The translations under genes and the position numbers were made by a program. The notes below the pieces were generated by a model, which did not search any database, was not told the origin of the DNA, and saw nothing but the letters and a program-made list of their open reading frames with translations. Positions 12,387-61,108 of a stretch of 64,000 nucleotides of DNA are shown here, in pieces (within the stretch, counting starts at the first letter, position 1; each line of letters begins with the position of its first letter). The DNA comes from Lingula anatina (Eukaryota; Animalia; Brachiopoda): NCBI GenBank assembly GCA_051362555.1, contig CM120649.1, positions 4,092,001 through 4,156,000 on the forward strand. Direction: 5' to 3'.

Positions 12387-14531
12387 ATGGAGACCCGTGT
12401 GTTGATTGGTTTCTTTGTCGTGTTTTGCATTGCGAATGTCTCGGTCGCAGCTCCTGTGGACGAATCTCAAAGCGTCAAGGACAGTAACGACGAGGTAAAG
12501 ATGTAAACTGTTAAATAAAATTTCAACAATAAATATTACTGAACTTTTGTCTTCACACGCTGCTGATAAAATAAACTAATACCCCCGTCACACTTAATCG
12601 GAATCAGCAGGAATCAAGAAGAATGAGGCTGAATGAAGAATTTTAAAAATTCGCACCACATTCGGGAAAAAAGTTCAAATTGACCTTAATTTTTGTAAGA
12701 GGACCGTTGGAATACTCAGAATGCGCTTGAATTCGCCTGGAATGATAAGTGCACTTTCGGCTGTATTAGCTCTCAAATGCAGTTCGAATGTTTAGTTGGA
12801 AAACTAGGAATATCTATAATGCTGTCAGAATGCAGTAAGAATATTTAGAATACACTTTGAATGGCGTACTAGTGTAGTTCGATTGCTAGCAAAATTAAAA
12901 TTTCAGCTCATCCGATGCACATTCGAAACATTCTGGCGGGATTTTATACTCCCGTCACACAAGAGGCGGAATGATTAAGAATGGCGTCGGAAATACAATT
13001 CTTTGTGCATTCCTGGATATTCGAAGAGCATTCTAAAAATTCCGAGTGCATTCCAAATATTTTACACATTCTTGTGGCCGGCTCGAATGTGTTGCTCATG
13101 TCAAAAACTTTCGAAGTGCATTCCAAGTGGAAAATTACCGAATGGCATTTGAACATTATTCTAACTGCACTATGACTGCATTCTAAATATTCTTACGGCA
13201 TTCCGACAGCATTTGAAACATTCTAATCAGTTACCATTCCAGTGGCATTATTTATATACTCTGGGCATCGTGTTACATGAAACATTAAACATGTTAGAAA
13301 GTAATTTTAGTATTTTACTTATTTCAGCTGCATTCTGTTTGAATTCTTTATAATTCAAACCATCATTGGCAGCCATACCGGGAGCATTTTGACTGCATTT
13401 GAGTTCGCTTCGTATATCATTCGAGGCACCTTCTTACATACTTCAGCCTGTATTCGGCCAGCAGTCAAACCACACCGGTACGGCATTTGAATTTCATTCG
13501 GAATATTCTGACTGCATTCTAACAACATTCGCAATATTTCCTCCCGATTATGGCACGAATTTTTCAATTATTTTATTCCATCTGGTTCTGCTTGATTCCT
13601 ACTGGTTCAGGATAAGTTTGACAGGGCCCTTAAGTCACGTGCCAGTTCGAATATCCCTCGAATGTGATCAGAATGTCTCGAATGTTGCCAGAATGCTGTG
13701 AGAATATTTAAAATGCAGTCATAGTGTAGTTAGAATACTATTCAAATGCCATTCAATAATTTTTCACTTGGAATGCAATTCGAAAGTTTTTTAACATTCG
13801 GGCCGACCACAGTAATGGGTAAAAATTTTTGAAATGCACTCGGAATTTTTAGAATGCTCTTTGAATATCCAGGAATGCACAAATAATTGAATTTCCGACG
13901 GCATTCTTGCTCATTCTGCCTCTAGTGTGACGGGGGTATAAGACAAAGTGAAATAAATTCTCCAGCCAACACTGCCCTTGACTATGACATAAGTGCTGTA
14001 GAAATCTTGAACAATATTAAAGTATAGGATTAGACATGAAAGTGGCAGTATATAATGAATGGAATCTGTGAATTTTATACAAGTATGGTGGTTTTTATCT
14101 GTGTATATGATAAATTTATCCCGAAAATGAAGTTTTTAAGAGCGACAGAGAAATGGAGGGAGAGGGGGGAGGTGAAGAAGAAAAAATGGCTTAAAAGGTC
14201 TAATTTTTGCCTTTCAAAAATTGCCATAAACATTTATTTTCACAACTACGTAATATACTTAAAATTCAGATATCTAATTTAAGCATTATAGATTTTAATT
14301 CTAGTGAATAGAAAATCCTTTTGGACAGTGTGTCATATTTTATCATTTTAGGCCATGGTAAGAGCCAAACGTGGACATTGCATTTGGCAATGTGGCTACT
14401 GGGGTCACTTCTTGACCTGTCCAAGTGGGTTCTTCGTCCGGGGAACTTGCAGCTCTGGATTTAATCCAGATTGTTCTCATACCCACTGCGGCAGAAAGAC
14501 CTGGCACGCCATCTTGTGTTGCCCGAAATAA
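12387..14531 (+). CDS. Secreted 8-Cys prepro-peptide, copy 1 (95 aa; exons 12387-12494, 14352-14531)
   Basis: METRVLIGFFVVFCIANVSVA-APVDESQSVKDSNDE|AMVRAKR-GHCIWQCGYWGHFLTCPSGFFVRGTCSSGFNPDCSHTHCGRKTWHAILCCPK*. Phase-0 GT-AG intron, signal peptide, furin-type RAKR site, conserved across paralogs. Confidence 0.92.
12580..13938. mobile_element. Composite non-autonomous DNA transposon(s) in the intron of peptide copy 1
   Basis: Termini TACCCCCGTCACACT / AGTGTGACGGGGGTA; internal related termini at ~12946 and ~13616-13632; interior rich in GAATGC/GCATTC motifs. Confidence 0.75.
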
Positions 14532-16275
14532 ACTTGTGCAACAACATCCGTCGTATTCAGATATATACACAAGAATGCTTTACAAACTGAGCAGAATTTT
14601 GAATTTCATTGATGTAAAAGATAAAAACTTAGTTGGAAACTATTCGGTTTATTATCTTTGCTGTTTTGGAGTGTATTCACTTCGCAGTTGGTCAAATAAA
14701 AGAATTGTTTTATTTCTGAAAATGGCTATTTGATACTGCACATAGGAAGAATGACACCCCCCCCCCCCCCATGTGACTTTTCCACGTGTTTGTAAAATAA
14801 ATGTTATAGTGAGTAATGACGACAGCAGTTTGGAGCTTCCGAACGTTTATTCACCGACTCTTGCTTCATACAACTTCACAAATATTTAAACTCGATTTCT
14901 CCGTACTGATCACGCATTTACTTGTTTTCTTTTCCATTGTCTTTGCGTGATTACAAAATATTTTCCATTCGCATGTTGCAAGTCACTATGCAACATTTCC
15001 TTATTAGGTAATCCCTAAGAGACTTGTTTTCAATTAAATTTATCTAAAATATTATTTGGATTACTCATACTTGGACCTTATCCAAAACTCAGTTATCATG
15101 TGATAAATAGATGATCGAAATTAAAATATGTTATGAGATTAACCAATCACATTAATTGTTACTGACTTTGACCTTTTCCATCTTTTTCTGACACTAAAAA
15201 CATGTACTACACTTGTTGACTCTTGGTGAAACTTAACTTACACTCAATGACTTTTTGTCTTTTTACTCATTTGATTCCGCTTTAATTGTTTTCTGTAATT
15301 AGTGAAAGTGTAAGTAATTTGCTTTACAACATAAAGGTCTACCCCAAATTATTTTCAGTTCATTTTCACGAAGTCGCCTTTTCTTGACCCATAAATTCTT
15401 CAGAAGCCAGTGCGAACAACAGAATAAAATGCCTATTTATCAGTGTACATTCTTGATCAAAGATATCTTATGCGGGGTTTCTCGACGAATCGAATTTTCC
15501 TTGAAAAAAGGTGATTTTCCCCAACTCTCGAACGGTCCGTGCACTTGGATTTAAGAGCAAACAACAACTGATTCCTGTAGTTATTAAAGAACAGTTATAA
15601 AAAAAAACATTTAAAAAGCCTGCCACGGCAAGTAAAAGTTAACAAGTAAATAAATAAATTAGTAATCTCCCATCTCATCTTCTGTGTCAGTCTGAATCAT
15701 TGCAGTCTTTTTCCAGCTCAGGGATTAAAGTGAAAACGTGTTATGCGATTCCTTTGTGATAAAGTTTCTTGTAAGTAACAACTTTACCAACTTGATGTCG
15801 CTTTCTTGATTTATCAATTGCCTAATTTTTCAAGATTTCAGGGTCTGCTACGGCATCCCTACCCATATTGTCAGAAACTCAGAACTTTTAAGGAAATTAA
15901 TCTTTTGCATTTTTTCCTGGCGTTGGTCTTTGCGTTTCCTGGATTTTGCTCTCCACTGCCTTAAGATGGGTACATGCTATATTGTTACTCTCTTCTTTCT
16001 TCAATTATTTTCAAGGCCTGCAAATTAAAATTCAGTTACTTCGTATTACCCAAGCATTTCACATTAAATTTGTGTACAAATTTTGATTTTTGACAACGTT
16101 TTAGTTTACCTTTTTATGAAAACTTTCTTATTGTCCTTTTCCACCAAATTGTTTAATTTATCAACTTAATCACTTAAGTTATGTTGAAGCACTTTTGAAT
16201 ATTTTATATTGCTGAGGTGAGCCGGCCTCAACTCATCAATTTGGAGATTTATTCTTGTATTGTGAATATTTGTAT

Positions 16276-16313: not shown

Positions 16314-17118
16314 CAGTGTTTGTTTGTGTGTGTGTATATTAATTATTTTTGTGCACCACATTGCACTATATATGTAATTCTAGAAAATCGTAAAAAAATC
16401 CATCATTAAACCTTAAACTTGGTAATTCAAATTTCCAGAAAATATAAATGCTGCACATTTATTAAAAAGAAAACAGTTGTAGACACTTTGTTATTGTCAC
16501 GTACATCTTACAGCACCATGCAATCTGAAATTAACCCCAGTAATGTAACTACTTATAAACAGGCAACTCTTGAAATTACAAAAAAAAAATCATTCCATTG
16601 TATTTTATATCCTAAAGTTTTACTGTAAATTCTAATTGGTCATTTCTGATGCATAGGCCTCTATCAGGCGTACGTACGAATGCCCTACATTCATCGCCTT
16701 GTCATCACTATACTTTGATACGCGAGCACGGGTTAAATATTATTTTTACTGTTCTCTGTCTCTGTAAGCAAGATTAATGAAACTAAATACTGGGACTACA
16801 TTTCTGCTTATTGTTGCCCTTAACATGAATAGTTTCTCCGGGTAGGTTACTTAACTCTCGGACCTGGGACTGGCTTATTCCTAATTATATCAGGTGCGGT
16901 GACTGTGTTTGGTAAATAGATAAAAAGAACCTAATGACTAAAAAGACGTCAAACTACATGTATTCCCGCTGTTTTAGAATTTCCTTTTTCTGTCATCTTT
17001 AAATGGGTGGACATGTAATTTTTTAAAATTTATTACTTTAAAGAGATATATTTCTGATTTTGACTTCCCTTCCGTAACTTAGAATTGAATTTAAGAGCGA
17101 AGGTAAACTGTATAAATC

Positions 17119-17182
17119 CCATTCCGCCTAAAAACCTAGAAACATAGAGCTTACAGAGATTACAGCTGGTTATAAAGTAAGC
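17119..17182 (+). pseudogene. Orphan type-A non-coding exon 1 of a decayed peptide gene copy (signal exon absent)
   Basis: ~16000-17250 matches the reverse complement of ~36050-36900 (copy 3 upstream region), with a donor at 17177. Intron-2-like sequence follows at ~17490 with no METxVL exon. Confidence 0.55.
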
Positions 17183-17654
17183 GTTTATATTTACGTAATA
17201 TTTTAATAGTTGTGCTTTTTAAAGATTTAGAAGTGTTAACTCACCTTATCATAGAGGAAAATGTTTGATTATAGTGTTTTTACTTTATTGTTGTAAGTTT
17301 TTGAATTGTGCTTTTGGAGGGGGGGGGGGGGGGGAGTCGTAAATCGAATATGCAAACTTACCGGACCATTGAGGAAAATGTTTGAGAATATTATTACATT
17401 ACCATTTCGCTTGTGGAAGCAGCAAAACATAGAATATTCGTCATAGCGAATCTTACATTTTTCTTTCATTATAGTCCTGATATTTGAATATTGACAAAAT
17501 TAAATGTAGATTTACATCTTAAGACAGAAAGGCGACTGTATACCCCCCCCCCCCCCCCGCCCCCCCGGCACATATTGAACGGTTACAGTGAATTATGTGT
17601 TTTCATTTTGTTTTGATTAGTGTTAACAACATTTCTATCAAAAAGTGAAGCTTT

Positions 17655-18138: not shown

Positions 18139-18253
18139 TTTCGAGTAACAATAGATGGCGTACTACGTCTTACTGTGGGTATGAGAAAAATCAGCATTTT
18201 TTCCCAGAGCTGCACGCTTCATGGATAAAGATCCCACTTGGACAGGTCAAGTA
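18139..18253 (-). pseudogene. Degraded fragment of the peptide mature-domain exon
   Basis: Minus strand reads YLTCPSGIFIHEACSSGK-(frameshift)-NADFSHTHSKT*YAIYCYS; 5' part missing and several Cys lost. Confidence 0.8.
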
Positions 18254-18423
18254 GTCTGATCAGTTAATTAGTTATCACCTATTGTGAATGGCCCCTGAGA
18301 TGAACAACAACTGTGAGCATAGATGGTTGTACATAATTACTGTTCTGCTAATTACAGTTATAGTTCAGGATGCGGAGAGGGGGTGGCAGGAACGTGGCTA
18401 TCTTCTTAACGGACCAAGATATA

Positions 18424-18960
18424 CACTGAGACTAAAATTGGAGTCATTTGACTCTCTAGTCAGAGTCCAGCACCCCTTGACCCTCATGGAGTTAATTTGA
18501 CTTGATAAGGGTCAAATCACCCCACTACCAGTCTTTAGACTCTCTTATCAGAGTCAATCACCCCCTGGCTCTCATGGAGTCAATCTGACTCTAAAATCAG
18601 AGTCAAATTACCGGGGGCCGGTGTCTGGATGACCCCTTTCACCGACTCTTTTCGCTCGCTGGACAGTAAGCCTCGTTTCAGTACTTGTGATGGCAGTGAG
18701 CAGACGGCGTGGAGAGAACAGTTTTCATCATCCTTTGTCCGTAAAATCATTACTTTATTGGTCATAGTTGGTTTTATGCATGAACAAGTGGTTTTCTGTG
18801 TGTTTCTGCATGCAGAACTCGTGCACTTATTACTTTCAGTTGCCCACACCCTTTATGTGATATGTTGGTATACAGGTCAGCAGGTTTTGTTTCCAGGTTG
18901 TAGGTTTGACCCGCCAATGCATGTCACTGGGGAGGTATGCTCACTCATTGGCAAATTTGT

Positions 18961-19038
<78 letters not shown>

Positions 19039-19462
19039 ATGCTGTTTATTACCGGATTTACAAATTGTTTGTTATTGCTGTGTTACATCAAATTCTGTAT
19101 GGCCTTATGGTTGGAGTGTCCGCTTCCGAAGCTGGAGGAGGCGGTTTCAAGCTCGTCCAGGGACTAAGCTTTTCTGATAAACGATACCTGCTGTCTTCCC
19201 GTTTGGCACTGTTATTTTTGTTGTTACCTTTTTCATAATGTGTCAAGGAGTCAAAAATTCCTTAATATGGGGTCATGGTGACTCTTTTGTAGAGATAAAT
19301 CAAGGGATGAAGGGATGTGTGAATGGAGTCAATTGTGACCCTCCTGTGGGGTCTGGGAGGGCGTTACTCCATCGGAGTCAACTTGACTCCAATTGGGAGT
19401 TATTTTAGGCACCACTGCTGGACTCCAAGTTTGGAGTCACTTGGACTCCGATTTTCTCAGTG
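18424..19462. mobile_element. Non-autonomous DNA transposon with CACTG termini (EnSpm/CACTA-like)
   Basis: TA-CACTGAGA...TCTCAGTG-TA with many subterminal GAGTC/GACTC motifs. Empty site GGACCAAGATATACCGACATG in the duplicate segment at ~26170-26190. Confidence 0.8.
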
Positions 19463-22080
19463 TACCAACATGTTGCATATCAATAAAAATCGTTTTAATT
19501 TAAATATATTTTCATTTCATATTCTTATTTTATAATTTAATAGTTGAATAAGGAGATATAACGCTTCAAATGTTTTCTCAGAGAAGATTCAGACCAGTGA
19601 CAAAATCAAGTACAACCGCCAACCCATAAAAGATGGCATTTATTCGGTAGATCTAAACTCTGTCTGACGGAATGCGCCTGGGGTTTCATTATACCATTAA
19701 ACCAGCCCAAGTGATGTGGGTGACTGGGAAAAGATGTATACCCTAGTACTTCTATACTATGATAGTGCAGTTTATAACCCTGTACCAAGACAGATGTGTT
19801 ACGTATTTATTTGGAGTGGGTTGAACAGTATTTAGAAAAAAAAACAGAAATAGAAAAAGTGGCATAAACATAAATACTTCAGAACTAACAGTGAGGGTAT
19901 TAATAGATGTTTTCATCTGTTTGCTGCCAGATGCTCCTCATAGCATCTCTATTATATTTCGGCTCCAAAAGGAATACCTTTCCTACTACACAACATTTCT
20001 ACTTGGCATCAGTTGTTTCAGAGGGGATGGGGGCATGGTGTTTTCGAGTTTCTCACTCTGTTTCTGGGATGCCACATTCTAACCCCCCCCCCTACCCAAA
20101 CAAAAATAATACTTCATGTATAACAACTGAAACGAGACAAAACCAAGTGATTTTGCCATCGACATCTGGGCTCTATATATTATATTTAAATGTAAACTTT
20201 TACAATTGTCAATCTTCGTATACTGTTTTGTTCTTGCCGAGCGAAATGGTTCGATACAGTTTAATCCTCATGCCCCCCCCCCTTCCAGGAGTATTATAGA
20301 TGGCAACTGTTACACGCTCACTGCAATAGAAATTATGAATATGAATAATGGTTAAAGAGAGAGATAGAGAGGGGGGGGGAGAGGGGGGGCTGGGTGACAA
20401 TAGTATGAGAAAAATGCTAGGTGGGGGGCAGCTGTTAAAGTACGAAGTTATTATTAATATAATTTAGCATTTGAATTATCAAGTCGTATAATGGTTCACA
20501 AAACACACCTTATGTTTGATTCAAAAACCAAAGGAGAGAAAAAAAGAAAACCTTCCTTTTTACCTACAAGCAAATCTTAACTATGAAGTATATGCTTTAG
20601 TTTATTCAGCCTCAAAACAACATACTCAAGTATCACGGATCTTAGTTTGTGAGGAGATCAACTTTTTTCTAGGAAACGAAGAACGGTGTTGACTGTTGAT
20701 TTACCAAAGAAAATAAAACAGCTGATTTGTATGACATTATTGTTTCCCATATCGTATATCCATCTGAGTTTCGACGGCGATTCTTCTCTATCCAGCATTC
20801 AATAGCAAACTTTCCAAACTTTTAGACCAAATTTTTGCCCTGTTTTGGTTCAAGATAAACAAAAGTAGCCCACTTCAAATAATGTTCTGAATCATGAACA
20901 GCGCATTTTTAAAAACATAAAATGGGCACAATATTTTAATTTGTCTTCTACTGGTTTATTATGGATCAAAAGTGGACTTAATTCTAAGTCTATCAATACC
21001 GACTGATTGATTTTCGGACTTAAGTTCTCTTGTCAAGAGACCCTTCCTCCCCCCCCCTTTCCCCGGCTAGTGTTGGCCTTAATTAAACTCCCTTTACACT
21101 GGACGGCGTGCTTTCTGTGTCCTTTGTGAGACCATGAAACTGACATCGCTGTGGTGGTATACAGGAGGTACAAGCATCGCTTTGGTTGCAGGATGAACGC
21201 CCCATGATCGGCTAGTTGTCAGCACGTAAAGTATCTTTTTTACTTTCAAACGGTACCGTACTAAGAGACGCAGGGGGTTCAGTGTAAGCGGTTAACAGAA
21301 GTCAGCTCTCACCAGATTCTGAAACAAAGGGCTGCGAGAGACGGACTCAGTGGCCGACATACTCCATATTTGTTGATTTCTGACTGTATTAACATGCAGG
21401 ATATGAGATATCGTTAAAGGCTCGTGTCATATACCTTACCTCTGCCCACACACATGCCTGTTCTTACACCTGTTTAACTGAGCGTCTGCGACTTGGTGCT
21501 TAATCCAATAAGCTGGCCATCCGTCCGTCATTCATTCGTTCGTTCATTCATTCATTCATTCATTCATTCACTCATTCATTCGTTATTGCATCTATTCCGA
21601 AAAATAAAACATTGTGAAATGGTCATCACAGGGTCAGCAATGGGCAGGGAAACTTGGATAAATATGTCTTTAAGTGTGGTCAAAATGAGTGAACCTGATG
21701 AAGGAATAAATGTACCCATAAAGATATGATTTACATTTTATTTATTTATTTATTTATTTATTTATTTCGAACCTTAAGCAGCCACTTTTGCGATGAACAT
21801 ATCTCAAACCTGATCGGAAAAGGTTTTATAGTTTCGATTTACCTTACTCAAGAAAATGCTAATGTCTGTTTGATATTCTGTCACTAACTTAGTAACTTGA
21901 ACTGTAAGATAAAAATAGACAAAATGTAAACATAACGTCTTCCTCTGAATAAAAAAATATATAGTTTGGAAACACAATTCGTCACGATTTTTACCTGGGA
22001 GATAAAAATCGTACCTTTTCAGGGAACTTATAGTAAATAAGCCCCTTGATAGGAACCTATGGATTGAATGGTGTTTTTGA

Positions 22081-22291
22081 CCCCATTCCCACAGATTTTA
22101 GATCGATCTATCCCTGTGGGGAGTCTCACTAGATTACTGTCAGCTTAGCCGGCTTAAATGTCTGTCCCGCCTACTAATAGCTGTAAGGGGGTAATTAACT
22201 ACCGTGCGAGCTCGGCTGACAGCAATTTAGCGTGAACCCCCAGGGAGTTAGGTCGATCCAGATGGATCGATCTAAATCTATGGGAATGCAC
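22081..22291. mobile_element. Palindromic MITE (second copy at ~50218-50400)
   Basis: TIR-like CATTCCCA(C/T)AGATTTTAGATCGATC ... GATCGATCTAAATCTATGGGAATG; absent from the paralogous site at ~11290. Confidence 0.7.
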
Positions 22292-22420
22292 TCTTTGTTG
22301 CAACATATTATTATAAGATGGAAATAGCTATAAGTCATGCATTGTGAATTCAATGTAATGTTGCTTGAATAGGGCGCAGTCTTCCAAATCGTATTTTCTA
22401 GAAAACAGCGGTAAACAAGT

Positions 22421-22577
22421 TTCTAAGAAAAATGGAAACAATTTTCATTTATGTCCATCACAACGTATAACTAAAATGGTATGAATATAAGTATGATCAA
22501 TTTATCTGGATGGCCATTCTGCCTGGCAGCCTGGAACCACTGACTTTGAAGCGGTTGCAGATGGTAATTAAGTAAGT
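22421..22577 (+). promoter_or_regulatory. Duplicated type-A promoter and exon 1, upstream of the 168-aa Cys-rich gene
   Basis: TTCTAAGAA (22421), TATAAG (22486), CCATTC, donor AA|GTAAGT at 22572; homologous to 11451-11607. Confidence 0.5.
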
Positions 22578-23208
22578 TTTTAACGATTACCTTTTTTTCT
22601 TTACTGTATAATTGAGCGTGGGGTAATGATTTAGAAAGTGACATTTAAACAGACCATTGATGAAAATGTTTAAGAATGCTGAATTGGCAAGCCGGTAAGC
22701 AAACAAACAAACAAAATAAACAAAATGATGTGATTTTCAGTTTTAAATTCAAACGAGCATAGGAACATCCAAAAAAGAACGAATATCTACACAAGGTGGT
22801 CGTAGATATTATCATTTATCATATTTTATTTAACTGTTTTTTCATAATCATCGTTATCAGTTCTGTAATACTATTTTATGGTATTATTGCACTTTTGCTA
22901 AAAGTGATGGAATAAACTAACAGAATATTGCATCTGCGATTTCAATAAATTCAAACAAAGACATAATGAATTATTGATCGAACTGCACGTAAGATGGTGA
23001 AGATTAAAAGATTAATAAATAAACAATTTACGAAAAAAGTGACAAGTTTAATTGTACCCAGGACTTTAGAATCGATCAAATGGTAGAATCAATTAGACGT
23101 TTCTCTCTTCTCGCGCTATCCCAGCGTCAACAGAAATAGTGTTTAATAAATAGCCGAACAGGGTTGTCTTTTCTGAGACCGTATCACTCTTTTTTCAGTC
23201 GTGTTCAG

Positions 23209-30630: not shown

Positions 30631-31425
30631 ATGGAGACCCAAGTGTTGATCTGTTTCTTTGTCGTGCTCTACCTGGCGACTGTCTCGGTCGCAGCTCCTG
30701 TGGACGAATCTCAAAGCGTGCAGGACAAAAGTAACGAGGTAAAGATTTCAACTGTAAAATAGAGCTACTGAAATAATCACAATCACCACAAAGTTGCTAA
30801 ACTATTGTCTTATTTGAACTATGTGTTTTTTCCCTCTTAGATACATTACTTCTTTTTGAAATATGCAGTATGGTTGTCTACCGAAGCATTTTTTTAATTT
30901 TTCAACAAAGTGGAAAATGGTCAATAGAGCGATTTTCATCACAATCATTGTATTGCATGAAATTGCACTCTTTGTGCTGTTATTCCATATGACAACTGTC
31001 AGATTGCATGGACCTTCTATACACCTGATTCTATCCTCTGCATTCAAAACAATCCATGTATTTAAACGGTTTTTGCATAGAGAAAAATGTCCATTCTTTG
31101 GCGTTCAAAAATACATCCAGTTTCACAAAAACATAAGGTACTCAAACTTGAGAAACTTTATTTTAAGCATTTTAAAAAGACTTTAATTCCAGTGAGTAGA
31201 AACTCCTTTTAGACAGTCTCTCACATTTTATTGTTTTTATTGTTGTAGGCAATGGTAAGAGCCAAACGTGGATCATGTTTTTGGAGTTGCGGTTCCTATG
31301 GTACCTTCTTGACCTGCCCAGGTGGGTTCGTCGTCCGGGGAGCTTGTGGCTCTGGGAAAAATGCGGATTGTTCTCGTACCCACTGCGGCCGAGGCACCTA
31401 CCACGCCATCTATTGTTGTAATTAG
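30631..31425 (+). CDS. Secreted 8-Cys prepro-peptide, copy 2 (94 aa; exons 30631-30738, 31249-31425)
   Basis: METQVLICFFVVLYLATVSVA-APVDESQSVQDKSNE|AMVRAKR-GSCFWSCGSYGTFLTCPGGFVVRGACGSGKNADCSRTHCGRGTYHAIYCCN*. Confidence 0.9.
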
Positions 31426-42711: not shown

Positions 42712-43288
42712 ATGAAGGTGCAAATTACTGTCGGGCTTGTCCTTGTAGTTTTAGCTCTGTTTGCCATGGCAACGGTTACCAACGGCGCTCCACAGGTAAG
42801 AACCGCTTCAAACTTGTAAGTGAAACTACGATGAAAGGGTTGTGTACAGTGTCACTAGCGGAGCTAAGGGGAAGGGACAAAAACATATTATGCTGAGCCT
42901 GGCGAGGCAATTGCATGTAAAAGATAATTATTTATCTGCATTATGTTAGGGGTAGAGGTGATGGAAACATTGCTTGGTTTTGTGTCATTTTGCTTGTCAC
43001 ACTGTTAAACATGTACATTTTTTCTCACAATGCGCATTATAAATCTTTCTAAATAATTCCAGAGATAAAGAATACTCTGTTACAGTTCCTCATATTTAAC
43101 CATTTTAGGCCGCGGTAAGAGCCAAACGTGGCACTTGCTTCTGGTGATGTGGCTACTGGGGTCACTTCCTGATCTGCCCATGGCGGTACGTGGTCCGAGG
43201 AGCGTGTGGCTCGGGGAGGGACGCGGATTGTTCTCACCACTACTGCGGCAAAAAGACCTGGCACGCCATCTATTGTTGTCCGCAATAA
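42712..43288 (+). pseudogene. Peptide copy 5 with in-frame TGA at 43145-43147 (exons 42712-42795, 43109-43288)
   Basis: MKVQITVGLVLVVLALFAMATVTNG-APQ|AAVRAKR-GTCFW*CGYWGHFLICPWRYVVRGACGSGRDADCSHHYCGKKTWHAIYCCPQ*; otherwise intact with all 8 Cys. Confidence 0.85.
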
Positions 43289-45813: not shown

Positions 45814-48800
45814 CTATAATCGCGTATCTTCAGTTTCATCTTCATGTTCATCTCTTGTCTGTACTCGTTGCCTTTCCAATGCCCGTTGACCAGTTGATGC
45901 AACCCCTGCCAGTACAAACAAACGCTCAACTTTCTTCCACAAAGGCAGTAAACAAATATGAATAAAGGCACATACGATAGGCCGCATGTTAAGCATAACT
46001 AACTGCACCCACTGCGCAGCGTAATCAGACACTGGTTTGTTCTTTAAGTGCAATATACACGAGACTGTGAACGGGAACCAGCGTATAGCATCGGATAAGG
46101 CAATTTCAAAAAAGCAGCACATACTGCGAAAATCAGTGAGGGATGATGAAGATCTTAGAAAATACAGCAAATGCAGGAAAACTCCTGCGAAAGTAGTTAG
46201 AGAAATAACAGACATTGACAGATATGTGATTTCAATCGGTAAAGAATTGTACTGTATTTCAGTCATAAAACTGCTTAAAACGAAAGGATAACATGTACCA
46301 GAATGGATTTCTACCTCCATGGGCAATAGAACACCAAAAGTAACTGATGCGGTGAGGACAACGACTATGCCAACGCATACCGTGCGCTTTAATAAATGCG
46401 TTTTTTCGATTCCAGCGGCCCGTAATATAATGGCGTGTATAGCAGCGAAAAATATTATTAAAGGAACACAAACCTGAGGAAAAATGTAGAAAAACGACGC
46501 TACTTGACACGATGGGCTCCTGCGCCAGGAATCAGACATGCTGGAATAAGTATCTGTCATCCGCATATTGTTAACAAATATTATGACAACTGGTATTATG
46601 GTTTGCATTTCAATAACATTCAATGCAACAGCAATTTCCTTCACCTGAAACAGTCCTTCAAGCCCTAAATACGATTTGAGCAATCCTAACGAACACATCA
46701 CAGAAAGAAGACCCATACCAAAATACGAGTACTTAACCACTATCTCCATGAACATACCTGAACACGAAGCAAAAAGATCAACTTTAGACTGACATAAATT
46801 TGCCTGATGAAAAATGCAGCAGACACTGAACGTATCTGCAATTATAATGTCAATATCACCTGGTGGTCCGTCCTGTTTGACCTCCAACGGGTTTCCAGAC
46901 AGATCAATCGCCTTCACTTTGTGCCAGCCACAAAACAACCAGGCATTAAATTTCTGGACATAATTTTTCGATATGTTTATAACACCAATGGATACGTTAT
47001 AAAACGAACAGTTGTCCAGGACAAACAGTACACCAGCTGACAGATCAAGATGCTGCAAAGCTGGAAGATTGTGGAAACAAAGTTGCGGAACGGAAGTTAC
47101 TGGGTTGTTACTTATGTTCAGCACTTGAAGAGAAATCATATTGGAAAATGCACCACTTTGGATGCTGCTGATGTTGTTTTTTGAGAGATCAATTCTGCGT
47201 AGATTGACAGTGTCTTGAAACATAGTATTATGAACTTCAACCAGTGAGTTGTTTGATAAGTCAAGATGTAACAGTAGAGTGTAGTTGTCCAATGTGACCT
47301 CTGATATAAGATTATCTTTTAAAATGAGACTCCTTACCATATCTCGTCCTATTATAAGAGGCACCTCAGTTAATCTACTCTGATTAGAATTTTGTGACCA
47401 CTTGAATACCGACCCAGGGCAAATTACCGAAAACCCTTCACAAACGCACTCGGGGGGACACTGAAACCCATAGAATGTTTCATCATCTCGCAGTTTACAT
47501 TGAGGGACTCCGTCCCGCACCTCTCTTTGTGGCAAGCAATTGTTCTGCCCTCGACATCTGTACATACCTGGGCAGGAGTAGTTGTTACAGGCTATTTCGT
47601 CACTGCCATCGTGGCAGTCTTTGACCCCGTCACAAACTGATCTGGCAGGTATGCAGTACGACGACGGGCATTGGTGATATAAATCTGTGGGACATGTGAA
47701 CCCGTGGCATAATGTTGATGGCTCAAGAAAAACTGCTTTATCCACATAATTCCAGTATTTTGAGTTGAGGCGAGACACGTTTTGTGTGAGCTGCCTCCCA
47801 GTCCTGCAGGTTAATGGGATGTCGTATTTATTTCTTTCGTAAAAGCAAGTCCTGTTCATATGGAACACCTGGGCATTTTTGTAATTTTTGCCGGATGAAG
47901 TCTTAACGAGAAAAAATGATTTTTCGTGATAAGAATATTTGTCGCAGCTGTACATGTAAGTGAGACACGGCCCGATGTTTTGATATCCACACTGTTCCAT
48001 CAATGGTTGTTGTAACGACAACTCGTCCGCCTCGTCTTCTTCGAAGGGTCCTAGACAGTCCACCACGCCGTCGTGTTTCTGTGAGTACGGAATGAATGTA
48101 TCAGAAAAACAAGAATAGAATTTCTTCCTATAGATATTTGCGCACTGAGCCTCATCTGATCCATCTTTACAGTGGGGTATCAAGTCGCATCGTTCGCTCA
48201 TTTGAATGCATTCTTCACTGCCACAGTGAAACTGATGTGCGTTACAAGGCGGATTCATACAACCAATTTCGTCTGAGTTGTCCGAACAATCAGCCACTTT
48301 GTCACAAAATCGGGAGAAATGAAGATAATCTCCGTTCTTACAACGCCCGAAATGAAGCAGATGACAGGTGACATTTTCGTCACTGCCGTCGAGGCAATCT
48401 TTTCGTCCGTCACACCTAGAGTCTATAGAAACACATGTGCCGTCTCCACATTTAAACTGAAAATCAGAACAGTTACTATTTTTGGTCGTTTTCGACGACA
48501 CTCGCGATCGACTGCCTTCATTGGCGTGTCTTGGGTATTCACATATCACAGAGGCTGCATGGAATTCTCGCGGACAAGGAATCATGATCCAGTTGGACGA
48601 GTAGTGAGGATTGGTGACCATCATAGCTGCACATGAAACATCATGGTCATAAACAGGATGTCTTGAATTGAGAAGATTTGATCTCGACATGAATGCAAAA
48701 TCGCTGAGAGCAATTTTTGAATATTTAGCCGCGGTTCGAAAGCGTTCCTCTATAAAGAGTTTGTCATACTGTGGATGGTACCAGTCCGAAAATACAAGCG

Positions 48801-51800
48801 GTGTGTTGTCTATCCACCGGAGCACGTTCTAAAAAGAGGTAACAGCCATTTCGTGAAAAATACCAATTTCAAGACGAGAAATGCAGAACTAGGATCTTCT
48901 CAAAACTGAATTTTTTTATATGTTTTAACAAAGAAATATTCAGAAAGTAACACAAGAATTTCTACCCACACCACTACTTCTCTTTATGAAATATACACGT
49001 GTGTACACAATATATTTTCTTCTTTAGGGTGGTTTGGTAACATCTACATAGGCTTTACAGCCTATGAGCCAAAGGCCAAAAAATTAATTCTATTGTCTAA
49101 AATTTGGGAATATTTTACATGTTTTTGGTGAATTTGAAATAGTTGAAGTCTTTATATTCAATTTATGCCAGTTACTTTATCTTAAATTTGTATATTTGAA
49201 CACAGATGGCTCTAATCCAAAATGACCACCACATAAGATGTTTTTTTTTTTTGATATGTCAACAAGTCTTTCTTACTATAAAGTTCAATTTTGTATTCAT
49301 CTTCTAAGATTTTGTAAGTATTAGGAAATAGTATTGGCACTTTAGGGTTTCTGTCAAACGAAACAAATGACAGATGTTTTTGAATATAGTGCTGTCAATT
49401 AAGTATGATATAGTCCTTAATCAATTAGTAGGCAAATATCTACTATGCAAGTGAAAAGTTGCAATTTCGTGACAGAGTTAGGATGTGACAATACCTGTTT
49501 GGATGTTTTTCAGATAAAAGCGCACTTTGGTGCATACAGAAACGACAAATGTTACATTATAAGTGAGTAAAATAAAAATGATAAACCAGTGAGTGGCAAA
49601 TGGTGCTTCCCATGTTTTTCTGACACTCAACTTTTGGGTATATCATTCTGTATGGTACGTGCATTATTTATAATGACAGAATTGGGTTACCATTGGATGT
49701 ATCGTGAGTTAAAAAAGCGCACAGAAAGTTCATTCATAAGCATAATAACCTTTTCTAAAAATCTGCTTTAAAACCTGACAAAGTTAAGGCTTTACTGAGT
49801 GACAGTGATTTAGTGCGAGGCCACTGTAGCTTACGAAAATATTAGATAGAAACATCATTTAGGATAAAAGAACCATGGCTGCAAATTAATTGAGGCCAAA
49901 TAGTGCTTAAGGATGGAAACATATTTCTGATTTGACAAATCCGCTATCTACTTAAAGCGACACGTAGAAATTGTGCTTTTCGCAGTGTATAATTTTGGGG
50001 TTCCCATCAAGAGGAGTTCTGCCATGTGCATTGTTGTTTATATGTAGAACACATTTTCCAAACGTAGAGCACTAAAAATAACATTATTTCATGGAGTTTT
50101 ATTGCTGAAAATAGGCCGCGACAAGTATTCTTCAGAATTGGAACTCTTTATGTAGAATGGCTGTTTATTGCTACAAGTATATGGCTGTGTCTAGATAAGG
50201 TAGGGATTACTCTATGGGTGCATTCCCATAGATTTTAGATCGATCTATCCCCATGGGGAGTCTCACTAGATTACTGTCAGATAATCCGGCTTAAATGTCC
50301 CGCCTACTACAAGCTGTAAGGGGGTAATTAACTTTCGTGCCCGCTCGGCTGACAGCGATTTAGCGACCTAATTGGATCGATCTTATCTCTGGGAATGGGG
50401 TCTATGACTGATCATAATTACTAACCTGTTTTTCTCGCCTAAGACCCAAGAACAGGAGGAACCGATGTTTGACGTATATCTCCAAAAACCACTGCGTATT
50501 AATTACAGTTTGATTCAAAACGGCCTTTAAAGTGAAATCGTCCAAGGCGGTCGGTAGGTCGCCTCCACTGGCCAGACACAGCTCACGTGATCTCAACCAG
50601 GTAAGGGGCGGTCTCGCGTCTTCGGATTGTAATTCGGTGAGTAATTTATAGCATTTTCCAGAGATACATGACGCTGCGATACCGTTATGAAAATCTTCAA
50701 TTAAGCTATCAGAGATGGCAACATAGTTTTCAAGATTGTACGAAAGGTCAAGGTCTGATTCCATCCAAGGTTCGGACTCAGCGGGTAGGGGTTCTAAGAC
50801 AATACAGACTGTCCACGCACTGAGAGTGTTCCAAGAGTATTCAAAAGTGCCACCGGCGTATTTAGTATTTTTCAAGATAAATGTCGGTGTGCTAGCGAGT
50901 ATGCGACCTGTGGGAGCTTTGTTATGCCCTTCACCAAAGGCAGATGTGGAATATTCTTCTATTTTAAGTTTAAGTTCAGTTCCAATGGATCGACACAGTC
51001 TTATTGTGAAATTCAGAGAATAAAAACACCATTTGCAATACCTGTCCTTTTTTAATGTTATTGTATATGTAATTCCGGTATATTGCCGTCCACAAAATCC
51101 GAATAATGCACCTGTCGATTTAGTAATCGTTTCGTTGCGCGTTCTTTCTTCATTGGGTTCAAAAAATTCTTCCGAATTCTCCAAATAATTTTGTGGCCAC
51201 AGATCATTGGTAAAAGATAAAGATGAACAAAAAGTACGAGTCGTAAAAATGTGACCGTTAAATCTTGTTGTTGTTATTTCGAACACTTTACCTTCAAATC
51301 TTTTGTTGTGTTCTCTGTAAGAGAGGTCACATTGTTTTCGAATAGAATCCCGCCATCTTTGTTCAAAATATATCGTCATATGAGTATCATATGGGAAAAA
51401 CCTGTACCACCGTTTTACCAATGGACTCCCTAAATAAATCAACAGCATTCCATTAACTTGACAACCAGATCTTACCGGCACTCGCACATTAATTGAAGTA
51501 TCATATACATGACCAGAACTTCCGTTATATCTTGTTTGGCATGTGCTGTTGTTGCTAAAATATAGAAAATTAACCCACTGCCCAATCTGGATGTTTGATT
51601 CATTCCAGTGCACAATATGGCTGTCTTCAAGCCTATATGACAAACTGAATGTTATTTTACGTTTAGGTATTAAACACGACCCATTGATATTGTCAAATCG
51701 AAAACAGTAGAATATCACACGTGGTCGACTAAAAAAGATAACCGCCTTGAGTTTTTCCATACCATCCCTGTGGTCCATATCATCGTAGTTACAACTCGGC

Positions 51801-53065
51801 CCGACCACCGCCAAGTTATTATACAAGTCACTGTAACCAGTAAGTATTTTTCCAAAGAACAGGCAACTGTTTCCAACCTCTCCTTGCAGCATAGCAAAGG
51901 GTGATATCAAATTGCGAAAATTGCTTTCTAAACTAACCGTGGAATTTGAGAAAAGATCGATATCATAGCGAACTAAGGGTTCAGGGGATACGGTTAGACG
52001 AACCGAAGTGTGATTATTGAGGTTTGAACAAATCGTGTCCAAGCGGCCGTTAGCGTTTCTTGAAGATTGGCATAGTGTCCCGGGGGTATAGTGTGTTACA
52101 AAAGACATGTAGCGGGCAACAAACACCCATGGTGTAGGACCCAGTGTGTGCCTTTCCTCCGTTAAGTTAAAAAATACATTCCAACCTATAGTGCGGATGG
52201 AACCATTTTTCAATGGGATCTGAGTGTCAGTAGGATACAAAATTATCCTGGATCCTGGAGGTCCGTCGTAAACGTGCAATGTATACGGTACAGAGCTGTT
52301 TAAAGAAATGTTTGAATACACTTCCCAGTGTAGTGAAATTTGATCACCACCTCCAGCAATGATATGAACGTGATATTCCACTCTATTATTGCACTGCGTT
52401 GAAATGAGCGTTGTTTTGGGGTGAAACTCGCCTTGGCGCGACGACAAAACTGTAGGCAGCTGAACCTGATGGCAGTCTGAAAATACAGCCTGATATTCGA
52501 TGTGAAATCCGGACAATTCTTCAAAACCATATGTTAAATATTCCATGCAGAGCTTATTTCTGGGAAGGGTGAGTTCCGTTGAGTTGAGATACGTCAGCTC
52601 TCCCCAAAATTTACCAAATAGTCGGGAGTCGTTACACGATCCTAGAGATATGGAAAGATAATCATAGTAGTTATAATCTATTGAGAAATGATTTAATCTT
52701 AACCTTATCCTGCTATCCTTTGTAGTAGTTATCTCCCAACTCTGTATGTGCGGTGGATCAGAACTTTGGTCAAAATTTGGATTTTGAATAACACCGCATA
52801 TCCCATTGATGCCCAGAACATGTGTACCACCCTCGGTATATTCATTCGTTTGTTCCTCACACTCGCCCCAGGCACACTTGTGAATTAACTTCCTCGCTTT
52901 GTAATCCGTCAACGCCGGTAATTGCAACACAGACCTCTTCACGCATTCGCGAATTAATGAACGGGCATAAGACGCTGTCAAGTGACTAATGTGGTCACCG
53001 ACACCACTTTCAGAGAAAAGCGTAAAAACTAAAAGGAATATGCACCACGTCTTTTTGATTCCCAT
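45814..53065 (-). CDS. GRL101-like LDLa-LRR G-protein-coupled receptor with N-terminal CUB-like and C-type lectin domains (1884 aa; exons 53065-50426, 48828-45814)
   Basis: Signal MGIKKTWCIFLLVFTLFSESGVG; CUB-like motifs (CGVIQNPNF..WEI..RIRLRLNHFSID; LHVYDGP); C-type lectin joined across a phase-0 intron (LTW..SRELC..GGDL..FLGLRREKQ|NVLRWIDNTPLVFSDW..CAAM..WIMIPC..ICE); six LDLa-like repeats (e.g. CDGRKDCLDGSDE); LRRNT CPPECVC, several LRRs, CC hinge and seven hydrophobic segments. Confidence 0.9.
50218..50400. mobile_element. Palindromic MITE in the receptor intron (same family as 22081-22291)
   Basis: Shared GATTTTAGATCGATCTATCCC..GGGGAGTCTCACTAGATTACTGTCAG core and inverted ends. Confidence 0.7.
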
Positions 53066-54292
53066 CGCCAAATCTAAAATCGACTGCCGCCTTAACACTG
53101 AGTACTGCGCGCGACTGACACGCGCGAAAAAGTGCTACTCTTTGACTTGTCGACTGTAATCAGTTAATGGCCGCCGTGCAATCAGATGATGGATCTTTTA
53201 TTGATAAAGATACATTAATATTTAAAAGAAAAGGACACAAGCGTCAAAAAAAGGTGAAAGTCATTATTTGGTGTAGTGGATGTGTGTGTATGAAGTCTCG
53301 CTGCCGTGCCGATGTAACGTGAATGCAAGTCCGTTCTATAAGAACCGTAGTCCGCTTCCCATTACTTTTGTACAGGTGCCATTCGCCCCATATACAGACT
53401 TGACATTTAATAGGGAATATTTTCTCCAAATCATAATTAATCAATTTTTCCCATTTTGCTGACTGATAAATGAAAATAAGGATTTTTCGATGCCATTGTG
53501 ACATCAGTTCATTAATTGAATTCGCCAGTGAAGCAAACAAAAATACATGTATATTGCCTATTTTAACTCATACGACAACCATTGAAAGTGATATTTTTGG
53601 ATCTCCGTATTTTCCAAATTATCGTCTTTAAAAGAGTTGCATGCCCCACAAAGGCCCCTCCTTGTCGTATCCGACATAGATATCTTTTGAAGTCATATGA
53701 CGTAATGTGTTGTAGTCCAATAGCTCTCAAGTAATGCGTCGGCCTCTTTGTGTAGAGAAATTAACTATACAATTAAAAGTAAAGTAGACGTAATTAGATC
53801 CACGTAAGGTAAGAAATAAGTATATAAGCGATACCTAGAGAGAGAGAAAAGAGACATGTAGAGGACAGCTAGAGAAAGCAGCCAAGGAAGAGATTGGAAG
53901 TGACGGAATACGGAACAGACGAGTTACATGTAGGAGTTGGAGACCACTTAGAATATGTAGCTACCGAGCGACAACGAATAAATTGTTTAACTGGTCATCA
54001 TGTGGACATGGGTTTTCTTTGCGCGACCTTTTACGTAAAGCCTAGATCCCAACCGAACGTACGGGCTACTACGTGTGGTCTACGGTCAAAAAGGTGGAGC
54101 CTCTTTGCAACCCCACAAATGTAATGTGTGCAAAATTGTTGGTAAATAATAACTTTTGTTGACTCGTCACATCACAATTTTTAGGATGATGAGTCTGATT
54201 AAATATTTGACATATAATTTTTATCCCTAAGGCCATAACATTTAATACAGGCAACAATTTGCTACATTGTTATTATTGTTAAAACGATTATG

Positions 54293-55094
54293 TGTAGTGT
54301 TCACAAATATAATTCCCAGACATGTAAATTAATTTGATTAGAGTCGATTGCTTGTGCACTCGACTCGTTTTATGGCCTTACCTGTAGTTATGTAACTTAA
54401 GTGGATGTGTGCAATTTGAATAATTAAAATTAATATGTACCGCCAAATACTGCAGCACAGAATCCACCTATAGATAAGCAATACGTATAAAAAGATGTCT
54501 AGAATTAAGATCGGGGGGCAGACTGAAGAAGACACGAAGTGGACCGCTAAATATGTTATGTACCTTTACATATACATATGAGATGAATGTCCTAAACTTA
54601 TATAATTTAGAACGCTTAATTCAAGCGTGGGCTCGAAATAGGACATTACGTTTTAAACTTACTCAGTGGATAACGCAATTCGAAATTCCACGGTTCGTGT
54701 CAGATTTACGTAATGTCGCGCAAAGAAAACCCAAGTCCACATAATGACCAGTTTAATGGTTTATTCGTTGACGATCTCTAACTACATGTTCTATACGTGA
54801 AGCCTCCAACTTCTAAGCCGTCTCCCATAGCTCCGACGAGCGGTCCACTTCGTGTCTTCTTCAGTCTGCCCCCCGATCTTAATTCTAGACATCTTTTTAT
54901 ACGTATTTCTTATCTATAGGTGGATTCTGTGCTGCAGTATTTGGCGGTACATATTGATTTTAATTATTCAAATTGCACACGTCCACTTAAGTTACATAAC
55001 TACAGGTAAGGCCATAAAACGAGTCGAGTGCACAAGCAATCGACTCTAATCAAATTAATTTACATGTCTGGGAATTATATTTGTGAACACTACA
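54293..55094. repeat. Long inverted repeat (256-bp arms 54293-54548 and 54839-55094, 290-bp spacer); foldback-like element
   Basis: ORFs 54338- and 54852+ give near-identical translations; the arms differ at only a few positions. Confidence 0.92.
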
Positions 55095-56259
55095 TATGAT
55101 AGACGGGTTATATAACAAAACCGGCCTCGTTTTGGCAAATCACGAACAATCAATATTCCTTGTTGCCTTCTTTCTTGTTATGAATGAGACTATAAAAGTT
55201 TCTGGTAGACTACACTGAGATGGAGGAGACATTAAAATGGGGAAAAAGTGGGAAATCGTGCGTGAGGAGCACCTCCATCGTGCTACTTTTGGGAGGACGC
55301 AAACAGCACGTAGACACTTTTCGACATGATCAACAGCTGCTACGTGCGATCTACATGTACTGTAGCTACATGTACGTCCTGGCTGGACGCAAGGAGCCTA
55401 AAAACCGTGCGTCCAAAACGTATATAGTTGGGACCTTGGTCTAAATCTGAATCTTTGAACGTGGAATCTTTGGATTGCATTATCCACTAAGTTAGTCTAA
55501 AACGTAATGTCCTATTTCGAGCCCAGCTTGAATTAAGCGTACAAAATTATACAAGTTTAGTACATTAATTCCTTATGTAGATAAAAAGGTTCTTTATGAG
55601 TGCATGAATTGAGAGGAGTCGCCGAGGCTAGTTTGCTGTCAAAATTTGTTATCATACACAACACAACAGAATCAAATAGATGTAGGTTGAAAATGTCATT
55701 TTATTGACATTTGCACTTTGATTAATGTTCAAAGTACGAATGAAAATTACTGAGAGTTAGATATAAATCTATGAATGACAATCATGTATGTTATTTAATT
55801 TTCAAGCTTAAAGATATAATTTACATTTCAGCAAAGATGGAGGGAAAAAGAGCCCACACATGGCAGTATGTTTTAGACAAATTTTATGTCCAAAATTCGG
55901 CCGAGGCTGAGAGCGAGCTGCGCAACCCCTACCCTTCAGGAAGGGGACGTAGGTTTCCTCAATGCTCTGACAGCCCACTAATAGAGTTGTCTCTCTTGGC
56001 CTTATAACTGCCATATGTGCCCTATGCTAAGGTTATGCCCTGTATGTTGACTTAAACAAAATGAGAACTGCTATCCCATAGAGGCTTACCTATATGTCAA
56101 ATATTTCTGAACATAAATACCATACATGTTATAATGATACATAGAATTAATAATTGTTTTGCAGTGTTAATTAATCAGGGAAGATTAGGGAGGGACAAGG
56201 TTGGGTTTGAGAAACTTTATGAAATTCACTTAAAACTCTTCTCTCCTGAGCATGTTTTG

Positions 56260-57496: not shown

Positions 57497-57497
<1 letters not shown>

Positions 57498-57859: not shown

Positions 57860-58232
57860 AGGTATGTCTTCAATTCTTTTTCTTGGTAGACTCAATTGAT
57901 CGGATTTCCAGTGGTAATAAATTCCATTCCTTTGGACCTGTCACCATAGGTTTTAGGCGCATTTTTACCGGCTAAAGTAACAGTTTTTCTACAGACCGCA
58001 GATTTCTTGCTGGAACATAGTGAGTGACTAATTCACTTCAGTAGATCGGTGCAACTTTGTAAAAGGCATCATGAGCAAAGACTAGACATTTAAATAAAAT
58101 CCTGGCTTGCAGAGGTAGCCAATTTTACTCTTTTAAAACTGGGGTGATACGGTAACTCATGGATGTACGGGTTGATTATCTAGCTGAGATGTTCTGAATA
58201 CGCTGCAGTCTTTTAATCTGGTTTTTGGACAA
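57860..58232 (-). mobile_element. Degraded 3' fragment of a CR1/L2-type LINE ORF2
   Basis: KRLQRIQNISAR*..RITPVLKE*NWLPLQARILFK..APIY*SEL..YVPARNLRS..LKTYL matches the typical LQRxQNxAAR/ITPVLxxLHWLP/PxRxLRS tail. Confidence 0.75.
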
Positions 58233-60264: not shown

Positions 60265-61108
60265 ATGAAGGCACAGCTGGCAGTCGGGTTCTTCCTAATA
60301 GTTGGCGCTCTGTCCGTTATGGTGACGGCTGTTAATGGTGATCACGAGGTAAGAAAACATCCCCAACAAAAAAGAATAATTATAATAATATGAATAAGAG
60401 ATTGAAGCAAAGGGGAAACGTCCACCATGTAAATGTCAATAGAATAGTCTTTTCAAGTTTTATGAAAATTATCAGTAAGACGATGATGATAACATTATGT
60501 CAAAAATTTGACCAACGCTTTCAGGGCCCAAGTTAAAATATTTATTAAGATCTGGATTGTTCACGTCCACATTTCGGCAAAAGAGCGCCAGTAACCTGAA
60601 TTTTTTCAACTTTTTTTTTCAATTTCTATTCATTCATTTTAATAAGTTATAATTCATTTATACATTTGTAAGTTTTATTTTTATTTTTAAGGCAAAATGC
60701 CTTCGGTGTCACTGTGGCCGACACTGGCCTCTTACTAATAAATTTAAACTGCCTCACGTACTTTTTTTATACTTTCACCGTCTCATAGATAAAAACGTAA
60801 TTATTCATCCCCCCCCCCCCAAAAAAAAAAAAAAAAAAAAAAAAATCCTGGGTCTGCCAACAACATTTACTAGTCTTCTCTGTCCTTTATTCCAGGCGGA
60901 CGTCGTCAAACGGGAAACCGATTTGGGGGAGTGCACTTGGAGATGCGGCTACTGGGGGCACTATCTAATCTGCGCGCAGGACCACTATGTGAAAGGCACG
61001 TGCAGCTCTGGGGAAAACGCGGACTGTTCTCACACCCACTGCGGGCCCAAAACATGGCACGCCATTTTGTGTTGTCCTGCTTCAACTTTGATTCCCGTGA
61101 CTCCATAA
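60265..61108 (+). CDS. Secreted 8-Cys prepro-peptide, copy 6, divergent acidic paralog (98 aa; exons 60265-60348, 60896-61108)
   Basis: MKAQLAVGFFLIVGALSVMVTAVNG-DHE|ADVVKR-ETDLGECTWRCGYWGHYLICAQDHYVKGTCSSGENADCSHTHCGPKTWHAILCCPASTLIPVTP*; AATAAA at 61261. Confidence 0.92.

Follow-up and report, generated by a model that had tools for sequence, protein, structure and literature searches.

A 64-kb stretch of the genome of the brachiopod Lingula anatina (contig CM120649.1, positions 4,092,001 to 4,156,000; this whole stretch is called the window here) carries a tandem cluster of genes for small, putatively secreted peptides with eight cysteines. Sequence comparison shows that the family derives from a domain, so far unnamed, that elsewhere usually comprises three repeats in one chain and of which the peptides keep one. 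RNA reads include spliced transcripts of the family, abundant in some samples and undetected in others. As to function, we give about even chances to the proposal that a convertase releases single modules, three of which then form a prism that binds surfaces in host defence, a proposal in which the trimer, the ligand, the processing and the killing are all inferred.

Six-frame pattern searches, tblastn and nhmmer placed seven copies of the gene within 12.4-61.1 kb of the window. An earlier reading of the letters (the sequence-only reading) had proposed at least seven copies, and the seven were recovered at the positions it gave: copies 1, 2, 3 and 7 are intact, copy 5 carries a stop, copy 4 is split by a miniature inverted-repeat transposable element (MITE) and copy 6 is a fragment (Table 1). 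Each intact copy has two coding exons separated by a phase-0 GT-AG intron and encodes a precursor of 94-98 amino acids (aa). The signal exon separates two sub-lineages, copies 1-3 and copies 5 and 7. The full 8-Cys spacing of the peptides (3-8-9-7-4-9-0) was found 5 times in the actual window, whereas 100 dinucleotide-block shuffles did not produce it once, and with the RNA support described below an artefact or chance origin was rejected. Assembly of a multi-repeat gene by splicing of copies was likewise rejected, since a stop follows each module and copies 2 and 3 face each other.

Hydropathy predicts a signal peptide, and convertase cleavage would occur at RAKR or KR. At the level of sequence, the genes display the signal-prodomain-dibasic site layout of big defensins and trans-defensins. 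The predicted mature peptides of copies 1, 2, 3 and 7 have 52, 51, 52 and 64 aa and net charges of +3, +3, +4 and -3; their first Cys follows the dibasic site after 2 residues (8 in copy 7). The common prepro layout and Cys spacing proposed earlier were confirmed, with the corrections that the loop motif is really GxCxSGxNxDC and that copy 2 reads CFWSCGSYG. The spacer, described as acidic, is so in part and mildly (net charge -4 to 0). Copies 1-3 are indeed rich in aromatic residues (7-8) and His (2-5); the label cationic holds for these three copies, at a modest charge, and fails for copy 7. Pairwise ratios of nonsynonymous to synonymous substitution (dN/dS) in the mature region were 0.07-0.72 in the 14 of 15 pairs that were computable, copy 1 against copy 7 being saturated.

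For expression analysis, four of nine listed RNA runs (X12, X14, X15 and X18) were aligned to copy 3 at 80% likeness. Run X15 contained 12,487 copy 3 reads in 9.5 million records (~1,300 per million), on the strand expected for the gene. The coding intron 35643/34934, a junction predicted by the sequence-only reading, was spanned by 2,514 of these reads, and 2,219 crossed a previously unseen 5' intron leading to an untranslated (UTR) exon at 36062-36110. Many molecules end at 36106-36110, which is likely the start site of copy 3, and its 3' UTR extends to ~34564; the RNA shows no further coding exon. Among the rows shown, six near-fixed letter differences separate run X15 from the window in copy 3 exon 1 (35643-35754), two of which alter residues of the signal region; they may reflect allelic variation between individuals or reads from a paralogue that is very close in sequence. 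Run X18 yielded 2,039 reads, spliced and mostly of copy 2 type, with copy 2 letters at 12/12 exon-2 and 8/9 exon-1 diagnostic sites. Their source may be copy 2 or a close paralogue elsewhere, and because they were aligned on copy 3, the support they give to the junction 30738/31249 is indirect. Runs X12 and X14, both from one study, had zero depth on the copy 3 exons. Thus the family is real and abundant, it is on in some samples only, and the dominant paralogue differs between samples. A lack of spliced transcripts had been named in advance as evidence against the gene model; spliced reads of copy 3 and of copy 2 type are present.

A profile of the four intact copies matched two proteins among 38 candidates (E values 2.8e-14 and 4e-14), both with three repeats. 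One is a secreted 192-residue protein from a Myxococcales genome bin, the other (P0002, 352 residues) carries the module followed by a pore domain of the aerolysin type (ETX/MTX2). A HMMER library scan with a profile of the three-repeat form (192 positions) returned 365 proteins at E 0.001; 150 of the matches were listed and 151 sequences retrieved, including one cluster twin. Three repeats were present in 122 of these 151, two in 21, one in 4 and four to six in 4, and all 4 single-repeat proteins hold a broken further repeat. None of the 151 is a clean single-repeat precursor with signal, spacer and KR, and no furin-type RxK/RR site was found in 242 inter-repeat linkers. Alignment of the peptides with a 71-sequence alignment of the module by hhalign scored 99% (E 3.6e-18), and a hidden Markov model built without any window sequence recovered 7/7 copies. 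On these comparisons the homology of the peptides to the three-repeat module is secure.

The module (relatives compared include P0001, P0002, P0066, L002 and L003) has no Pfam or NCBIfam model and shares the motifs (W/Y)G, CP and GxCGSGxNxDC with the peptides. Over 413 repeats, G11 is conserved in 93%, S28 in 92%, G29 in 91% and D33 in 80%, and position 10 is aromatic in 78%; together with C16, C26, C34 and C49 these four residues form a near-invariant core (80-100% of the repeats) that is present in all 4 intact copies. The homologues have three repeats per chain and lack convertase sites, whereas the window genes encode one repeat each, behind a spacer and RAKR or KR and followed by a stop, and are more basic and His-rich; the mean net charge of homologue repeats is -0.7. 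The peptides resemble no repeat position (1, 2 or 3) more than another, and hence there is no sign of paralogues specialised as repeat 1, 2 or 3. The earlier view of an orphan cationic antimicrobial scaffold is abandoned, as each peptide corresponds to a single repeat of a module with a wide distribution. Contigs of bacterial appearance (L001-L003) encode the module, and it is also present in transcript collections from eukaryotes, where three entries bear the label Bolivina argentea. Two of the AT-rich, bacterial-looking contigs encode stand-alone secreted three-repeat proteins (L002, 3001-3564; L003, 675-1238).

Pfam was run on 70 of the 150 listed homologues, comprising all long ones and a sample of the short ones, and 17 carried a partner domain. 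Partners of pore type were the CEL-III C-terminal domain (P0032, P0124) and MACPF (P0115, P0126 and P0132, one of them also with a ricin lectin); partners of recognition type were LBP/BPI (P0060), GH16 (P0111) and C-type lectin (P0028, P0073). TSP1 and fn3 were found twice each, and dermatopontin, trypsin, lipase and a pilin-type N-terminus once each. The last case, P0023, is a pilin-type N-methyl protein with three repeats at its end, resembling an adhesin tip. With P0002 included, pore-domain fusions number 6 of the 150 listed and represent three unrelated pore-forming classes. The fusions with LBP/BPI, GH16, the CEL-III C-terminal domain, MACPF and ETX/MTX2 are undescribed architectures. 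The lectin domains of CEL-III lie N-terminal of its pore domain; in P0032 and P0124 the triple repeat occupies their place, N-terminal of the CEL-III C-terminal domain. CEL-III itself is listed among the beta-trefoil lectins of ricin type, its pore formation being induced by ligand (PMC11186620). The position in the fusions suggests, though it does not prove, that the module is a binding domain, and this position together with a repeat charge near -0.7 argues for a multivalent binder rather than a charge-driven lytic peptide.

The partner list also bears on the idea that the peptides are secreted binders without an immune role, acting in mucus, tube, adhesive, egg coat or gamete recognition, or as cytokine-like ligands in the manner of mammalian resistin. 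Among the homologues, many consist of a secreted triple repeat and nothing more, or join it to matrix domains (TSP1, dermatopontin), and such a role would agree with the on/off expression by sample, the paralogue switch between runs and the purifying selection. The rapid turnover of the cluster, in which 3/7 copies are dead, does not fit it, nor do the small size of a peptide apparently released by a convertase and the several pore-forming and pattern-recognition partners, and we consider this explanation improbable.

To gain insight into the fold, a single peptide and a three-repeat homologue were modelled. The peptide model (predicted local distance difference test, pLDDT, 72; predicted template modelling score, pTM, 0.55) has three strands and no helix of at least 4 residues. 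Foldseek placed resistin and RELM-beta as its top three matches (prob 0.75, TM 0.57), and VIA gave Z 2.8-3.5 to PCSK9, RELM-beta, resistin and APC-beta. The three-repeat model (pLDDT 87) has four strands per repeat, 12 in all. Its first Foldseek matches were the PCSK9 C-terminal domain and APC-beta (E 0.025-0.027, TM ~0.3), and its top VIA match was Vip3A (Z 5.3, root mean square deviation (rmsd) 3.9, 106 residues aligned). Two models and two programs thus point to one fold group, no single match being significant, and a prism fold is likely.

Among 288 scorable repeats, cysteine co-occurrence was 169/3/17/99 for C3/C50 and 21/0/2/265 for C7/C39, with p-values that are overstated because the repeats are related. 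Cys3/Cys50 and Cys7/Cys39 are gained and lost as pairs. As the extra Cys7/Cys39 pair is present in 21 of these 288 repeats, the eight-Cys form is not unique to the window. By elimination, C16-C49 and C26-C34 are predicted to form the remaining bonds. Mean-field coupling ranked C3-C50 first and C26-C34 second, however C16-C26 (4.06) scored above C16-C49 (3.70), and the pairing of the four invariant cysteines is therefore not settled.

The heads of resistin and RELM-beta (PDB 1rfx, 1rgx, 1rh7) align with the peptide model over 42 residues at rmsd 2.2-2.3 in VIA, a weak though top-ranked match (prob 0.75, E 0.57, Z 2.9-3.1). Like the putatively secreted window peptides, resistin and RELM are secreted single modules with a terminal CC, and their Retnl genes also evolve by tandem birth and death (PMC4467842). 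The head has ten Cys (PMC13647132) and follows an N-terminal helical coiled-coil tail, whereas the window peptides have eight Cys and no tail; the genes have three coding exons (PMC4467842) rather than two coding exons and one UTR exon, and no sequence match to the window peptides was obtained. In a vertebrate survey, resistin genes were confined to tetrapods and the coelacanth (PMC4467842). The double-layer beta-prisms of the PCSK9 C-terminal domain and APC-beta also consist of three disulfide-linked repeats, and APC-beta provides membrane binding to a MACPF toxin, just as the module sits behind MACPF in three homologues. The repeats of PCSK9, APC-beta and Vip3A have ~80 residues and six strands, as opposed to ~50 residues and four strands here, and the matches are weak (E 0.025, TM 0.2-0.34).

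Searches for a known family gave little. Pfam returned no match to the four peptides at E 10, PDB sequences gave chance-level matches only (VMO-I and ribosomal L37), and a word-based search with copy 1 alone, at near and longer lengths, found nothing. No match was found in viral contigs, nor in metagenome contigs with the peptide-only profile, and the best hit in a viral fold library had E 1.6. NCBIfam matched the repeats once (BSAP5b family, in 1/6 members), and Pfam at E 10 on 71 three-repeat homologues gave scattered weak matches only (TNFR_c6 in 6/71, SCRL in 4/71). No description of the peptides or the domain was found in the literature searched, from which supplementary tables and subscription journals were outside scope. 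The claim of novelty thus holds, with no matching standalone family in Pfam, PDB sequences or this literature. ApeC domains have ~200 aa, eight Cys and three DXED motifs (PMC9585378); the peptides contain no DXED, and none of the 71 homologues matched ApeC at E 10.

Comparison with defensins is relevant to the possibility that the peptides are monomeric cationic antimicrobial peptides which disrupt membranes by charge, the anionic propiece serving as inhibitor. Big defensins share a three-exon layout and a dibasic prodomain (PMC7203481), and the precursor has the signal, acidic spacer and dibasic site that this reading would predict, along with a net charge of +3 to +4, 7-8 aromatics and 2-5 His in copies 1-3, high expression and a weak alpha-defensin fold match (Z 3.0 over 31 residues). 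However, the charge is low, reaching -3 in copy 7, the spacer is merely -4 to 0, the top-conserved Gly/Ser/Asp loop is common to neutral or acidic repeats, and the mature region is under purifying selection. We regard this reading as unlikely. Big defensins and trans-defensins, moreover, have six Cys, the former with a hydrophobic N-terminal domain (PMC7203481), where the window peptides have eight Cys and no such domain, and in CS-alpha-beta defensins a helix is tied to the last strand by two disulfides, whereas the peptide model (pLDDT 72) has no helix.

A prepro architecture and tandem turnover are also typical of peptide toxins, and a further alternative is that these are toxins, of venom or of skin/mucus, whose targets are ion channels of animals or cell membranes. 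The module fronts pore-forming domains in other proteins, and coral SCRiPs have the same precursor layout of signal, convertase site and eight-Cys mature peptide, at a similar mass (PMC2652719). SCRiPs are anionic, however, and their motif, Cx6-7Cx4-6CPx3-6Cx4-6Cx5-6CCC, does not fit the peptides (PMC2652719). Among the matches listed, neither sequence nor fold pointed to a peptide toxin of solved structure; the genes have no pore domain, with a stop directly after the module, and there is neither a sign of diversifying selection nor evidence for a venom gland. The toxin alternative raised by the sequence-only reading thus gained nothing that favours a venom toxin specifically, and we hold it to be very improbable. 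Membership of the defensin, SCRiP, ApeC and resistin families was rejected, as the peptides lack defining features of each.

The proposal of a trimeric defence effector can be outlined as follows. A prepro-peptide with a predicted signal would be cut at RAKR or KR by a convertase, giving a 5-7 kDa module with four disulfides. As the released module is one third of the usual domain, the simplest solution would be a non-covalent trimer, in which three free modules assemble into a prism-like trivalent binder. Two conserved loops, (W/Y)G and CGSGxNxDC, would make up the binding site, and the target is likely to be microbial surface sugars or anionic lipids. Agglutination or membrane damage would result, in copies 1-3 helped by the added His, aromatic and basic residues. 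High expression in particular samples, tandem birth and death and a trivalent binder would fit a defence effector. Resistin heads, set against the three-repeat domain of PCSK9, offer a precedent for the trimer (PMC8253364), as does the lectin PhoSL, which is a trimer of single repeats and has homologues with the repeat in tandem (PMC11186620). At acidic pH and low salt, the RELM-beta head on its own makes anionic membranes permeable (PMC13647132), and the three-repeat prism of APC-beta binds membranes for a MACPF toxin (PMC5943054, PMC6294395). Of the earlier claims, that of a defence effector family survives as the best guess, backed by expression and tandem birth and death, without the orphan cationic scaffold on which it had been based. 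A bolder version, tentative and rather doubtful, would make the peptides an invertebrate counterpart of the resistin/RELM head, in which convertase-freed modules of an ancient beta-prism binding domain form homo- or hetero-trimers, and a handful of tandem genes so yields a combinatorial set of trivalent prisms that bind microbes and damage membranes; the three-repeat domain would then link resistin, PCSK9 and APC-beta, and target three classes of pore toxin.

Several observations weigh against a trimeric defence effector. No dN/dS above 1 was found in the mature region in any of 14 pairs computed, and copy 7 is acidic (-3). The best Foldseek E for the peptide model, 0.57, is below significance, and its VIA scores tie with an alpha-defensin and an unrelated sensor domain; for the three-repeat model the matches are likewise below significance (best E 0.025, TM ~0.3, rmsd 10-11). 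The library-scan profile had the three-repeat form, so that single-repeat relatives rank low, and 215 of the 365 matches were not listed. No Pfam partner was present in 53/70 scanned homologues, pore-domain fusions are a small share of the 150 listed, and fusions to trypsin, lipase, TSP1, dermatopontin and a pilin-type N-terminus indicate that the module is not defence-specific.

Table 1. Exons and remnants of the eight-Cys peptide genes, numbered from the first letter of the window
Feature	Position	Strand	Basis
Copy 1, likely 5' UTR exon/promoter	11544-11607	+	inferred; blastn 77% identity, E 3e-8, to RNA-proven copy 3 UTR exon
Copy 1, coding exon 1 (signal peptide, acidic spacer)	12387-12494	+	ATG after AG acceptor, GT donor at 12495, hydrophobic core KD9 3.2
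Copy 1, coding exon 2 (RAKR, 52-aa 8-Cys mature peptide, net +3)	14352-14531	+	sequence
Copy 6 remnant, promoter and UTR-exon homologue, without coding exon 1	16643-17232	+	76% to copy 3 upstream region
Copy 6, inverted, frameshifted exon 2 fragment	18140-18255	-	nhmmer E 9e-23; tblastn in two frames
Copy 2, coding exon 1	30631-30738	+	sequence; copy-2-type reads in run X18
Copy 2, coding exon 2 (RAKR, 51-aa mature peptide, net +3)	31249-31425	+	12/12 diagnostic letters in run X18 reads
Copy 3, coding exon 2 (RAKR, 52-aa mature peptide, net +4)	34755-34934	-	depth ~4,000 in run X15, correct strand
Copy 3, coding exon 1 (ATG at 35750; coding 35750-35643)	35643-35761	-	2,514 reads across 35643/34934
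Copy 3, non-coding first exon	36062-36110	-	2,219 junction reads, CT..AC ends
Copy 4, pseudogene exon 2	39450-39778	+	protein 98% identical to copy 3 as far as insertion
MITE inside copy 4	39602-39748		145-147 bp, near-perfect terminal inverted repeats
Copy 5, coding exon 1 (intact signal peptide of copy-7 type)	42712-42795	+	sequence
Copy 5, coding exon 2 (RAKR, all eight Cys, single in-frame TGA at 43145)	43109-43288	+	sequence
Copy 7, coding exon 1	60265-60348	+	sequence
Copy 7, coding exon 2 (KR, 64-aa mature peptide, net -3, short N- and C-terminal extensions)	60896-61108	+	sequence

The non-functional copies differ in their lesions. In copy 4 the cleavage site is altered to RDKL and no coding exon 1 was detected by tblastn or nhmmer of the window, which with the MITE makes this copy dead on several counts. 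The MITE, presumably PIF/Harbinger-like, is single-copy in the window and flanked by a target duplication of 3 bp (CTG) or 5 bp (CCTGG). A selenocysteine at the TGA of copy 5 was rejected, since no copy has Cys at that position. Adjoining the copy 6 fragment, the interval 18295-19696 contains a second occurrence, at 95% identity, of a 365-bp element at 26051-26414, interrupted by ~1 kb of inserted sequence. The region 19717-22851 duplicates the upstream region of copy 1 and has a weak UTR-exon homologue at 22514-22577 (E 0.007); no coding exon was found in it, and it is possibly an eighth, promoter-only remnant. Nested inverted repeats at 53931-55590 include a 262-bp pair at 98% identity (54287-54548 and 54839-55100) and are probably a young non-autonomous DNA transposon.

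Receptor-like genes lie beside the cluster. On the minus strand at 45817-53134, between copies 5 and 7, two very long open reading frames (910 and 1,004 aa) 1.6 kb apart encode a CUB domain followed by LDLa repeats, leucine-rich repeats and a hydrophobic C-terminal region, with unusually few introns; we take them to resemble a GRL101-type receptor. A rhodopsin-family G-protein-coupled receptor exon, peptide-receptor-like, was found at 62642-63607, also on the minus strand (7tm_1 E 7e-21, Srw E 3e-8), its start being placed in another exon. A tie between the peptides and these receptor genes has no support beyond proximity. Judged by sequence, the receptor genes and the intron structure point to an invertebrate.

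The peptides form a highly expressed family of ~50 residues, rich in disulfides, undescribed as far as searched and open to synthesis and assay. They belong to a domain, still without a name, that hundreds of proteins from bacteria and eukaryotes contain, and the free peptide is the simplest handle on the ligand of that domain. If the likeness to resistin is homology, the family would bear on the origin of resistin and RELM, and on whether their first role was antimicrobial.

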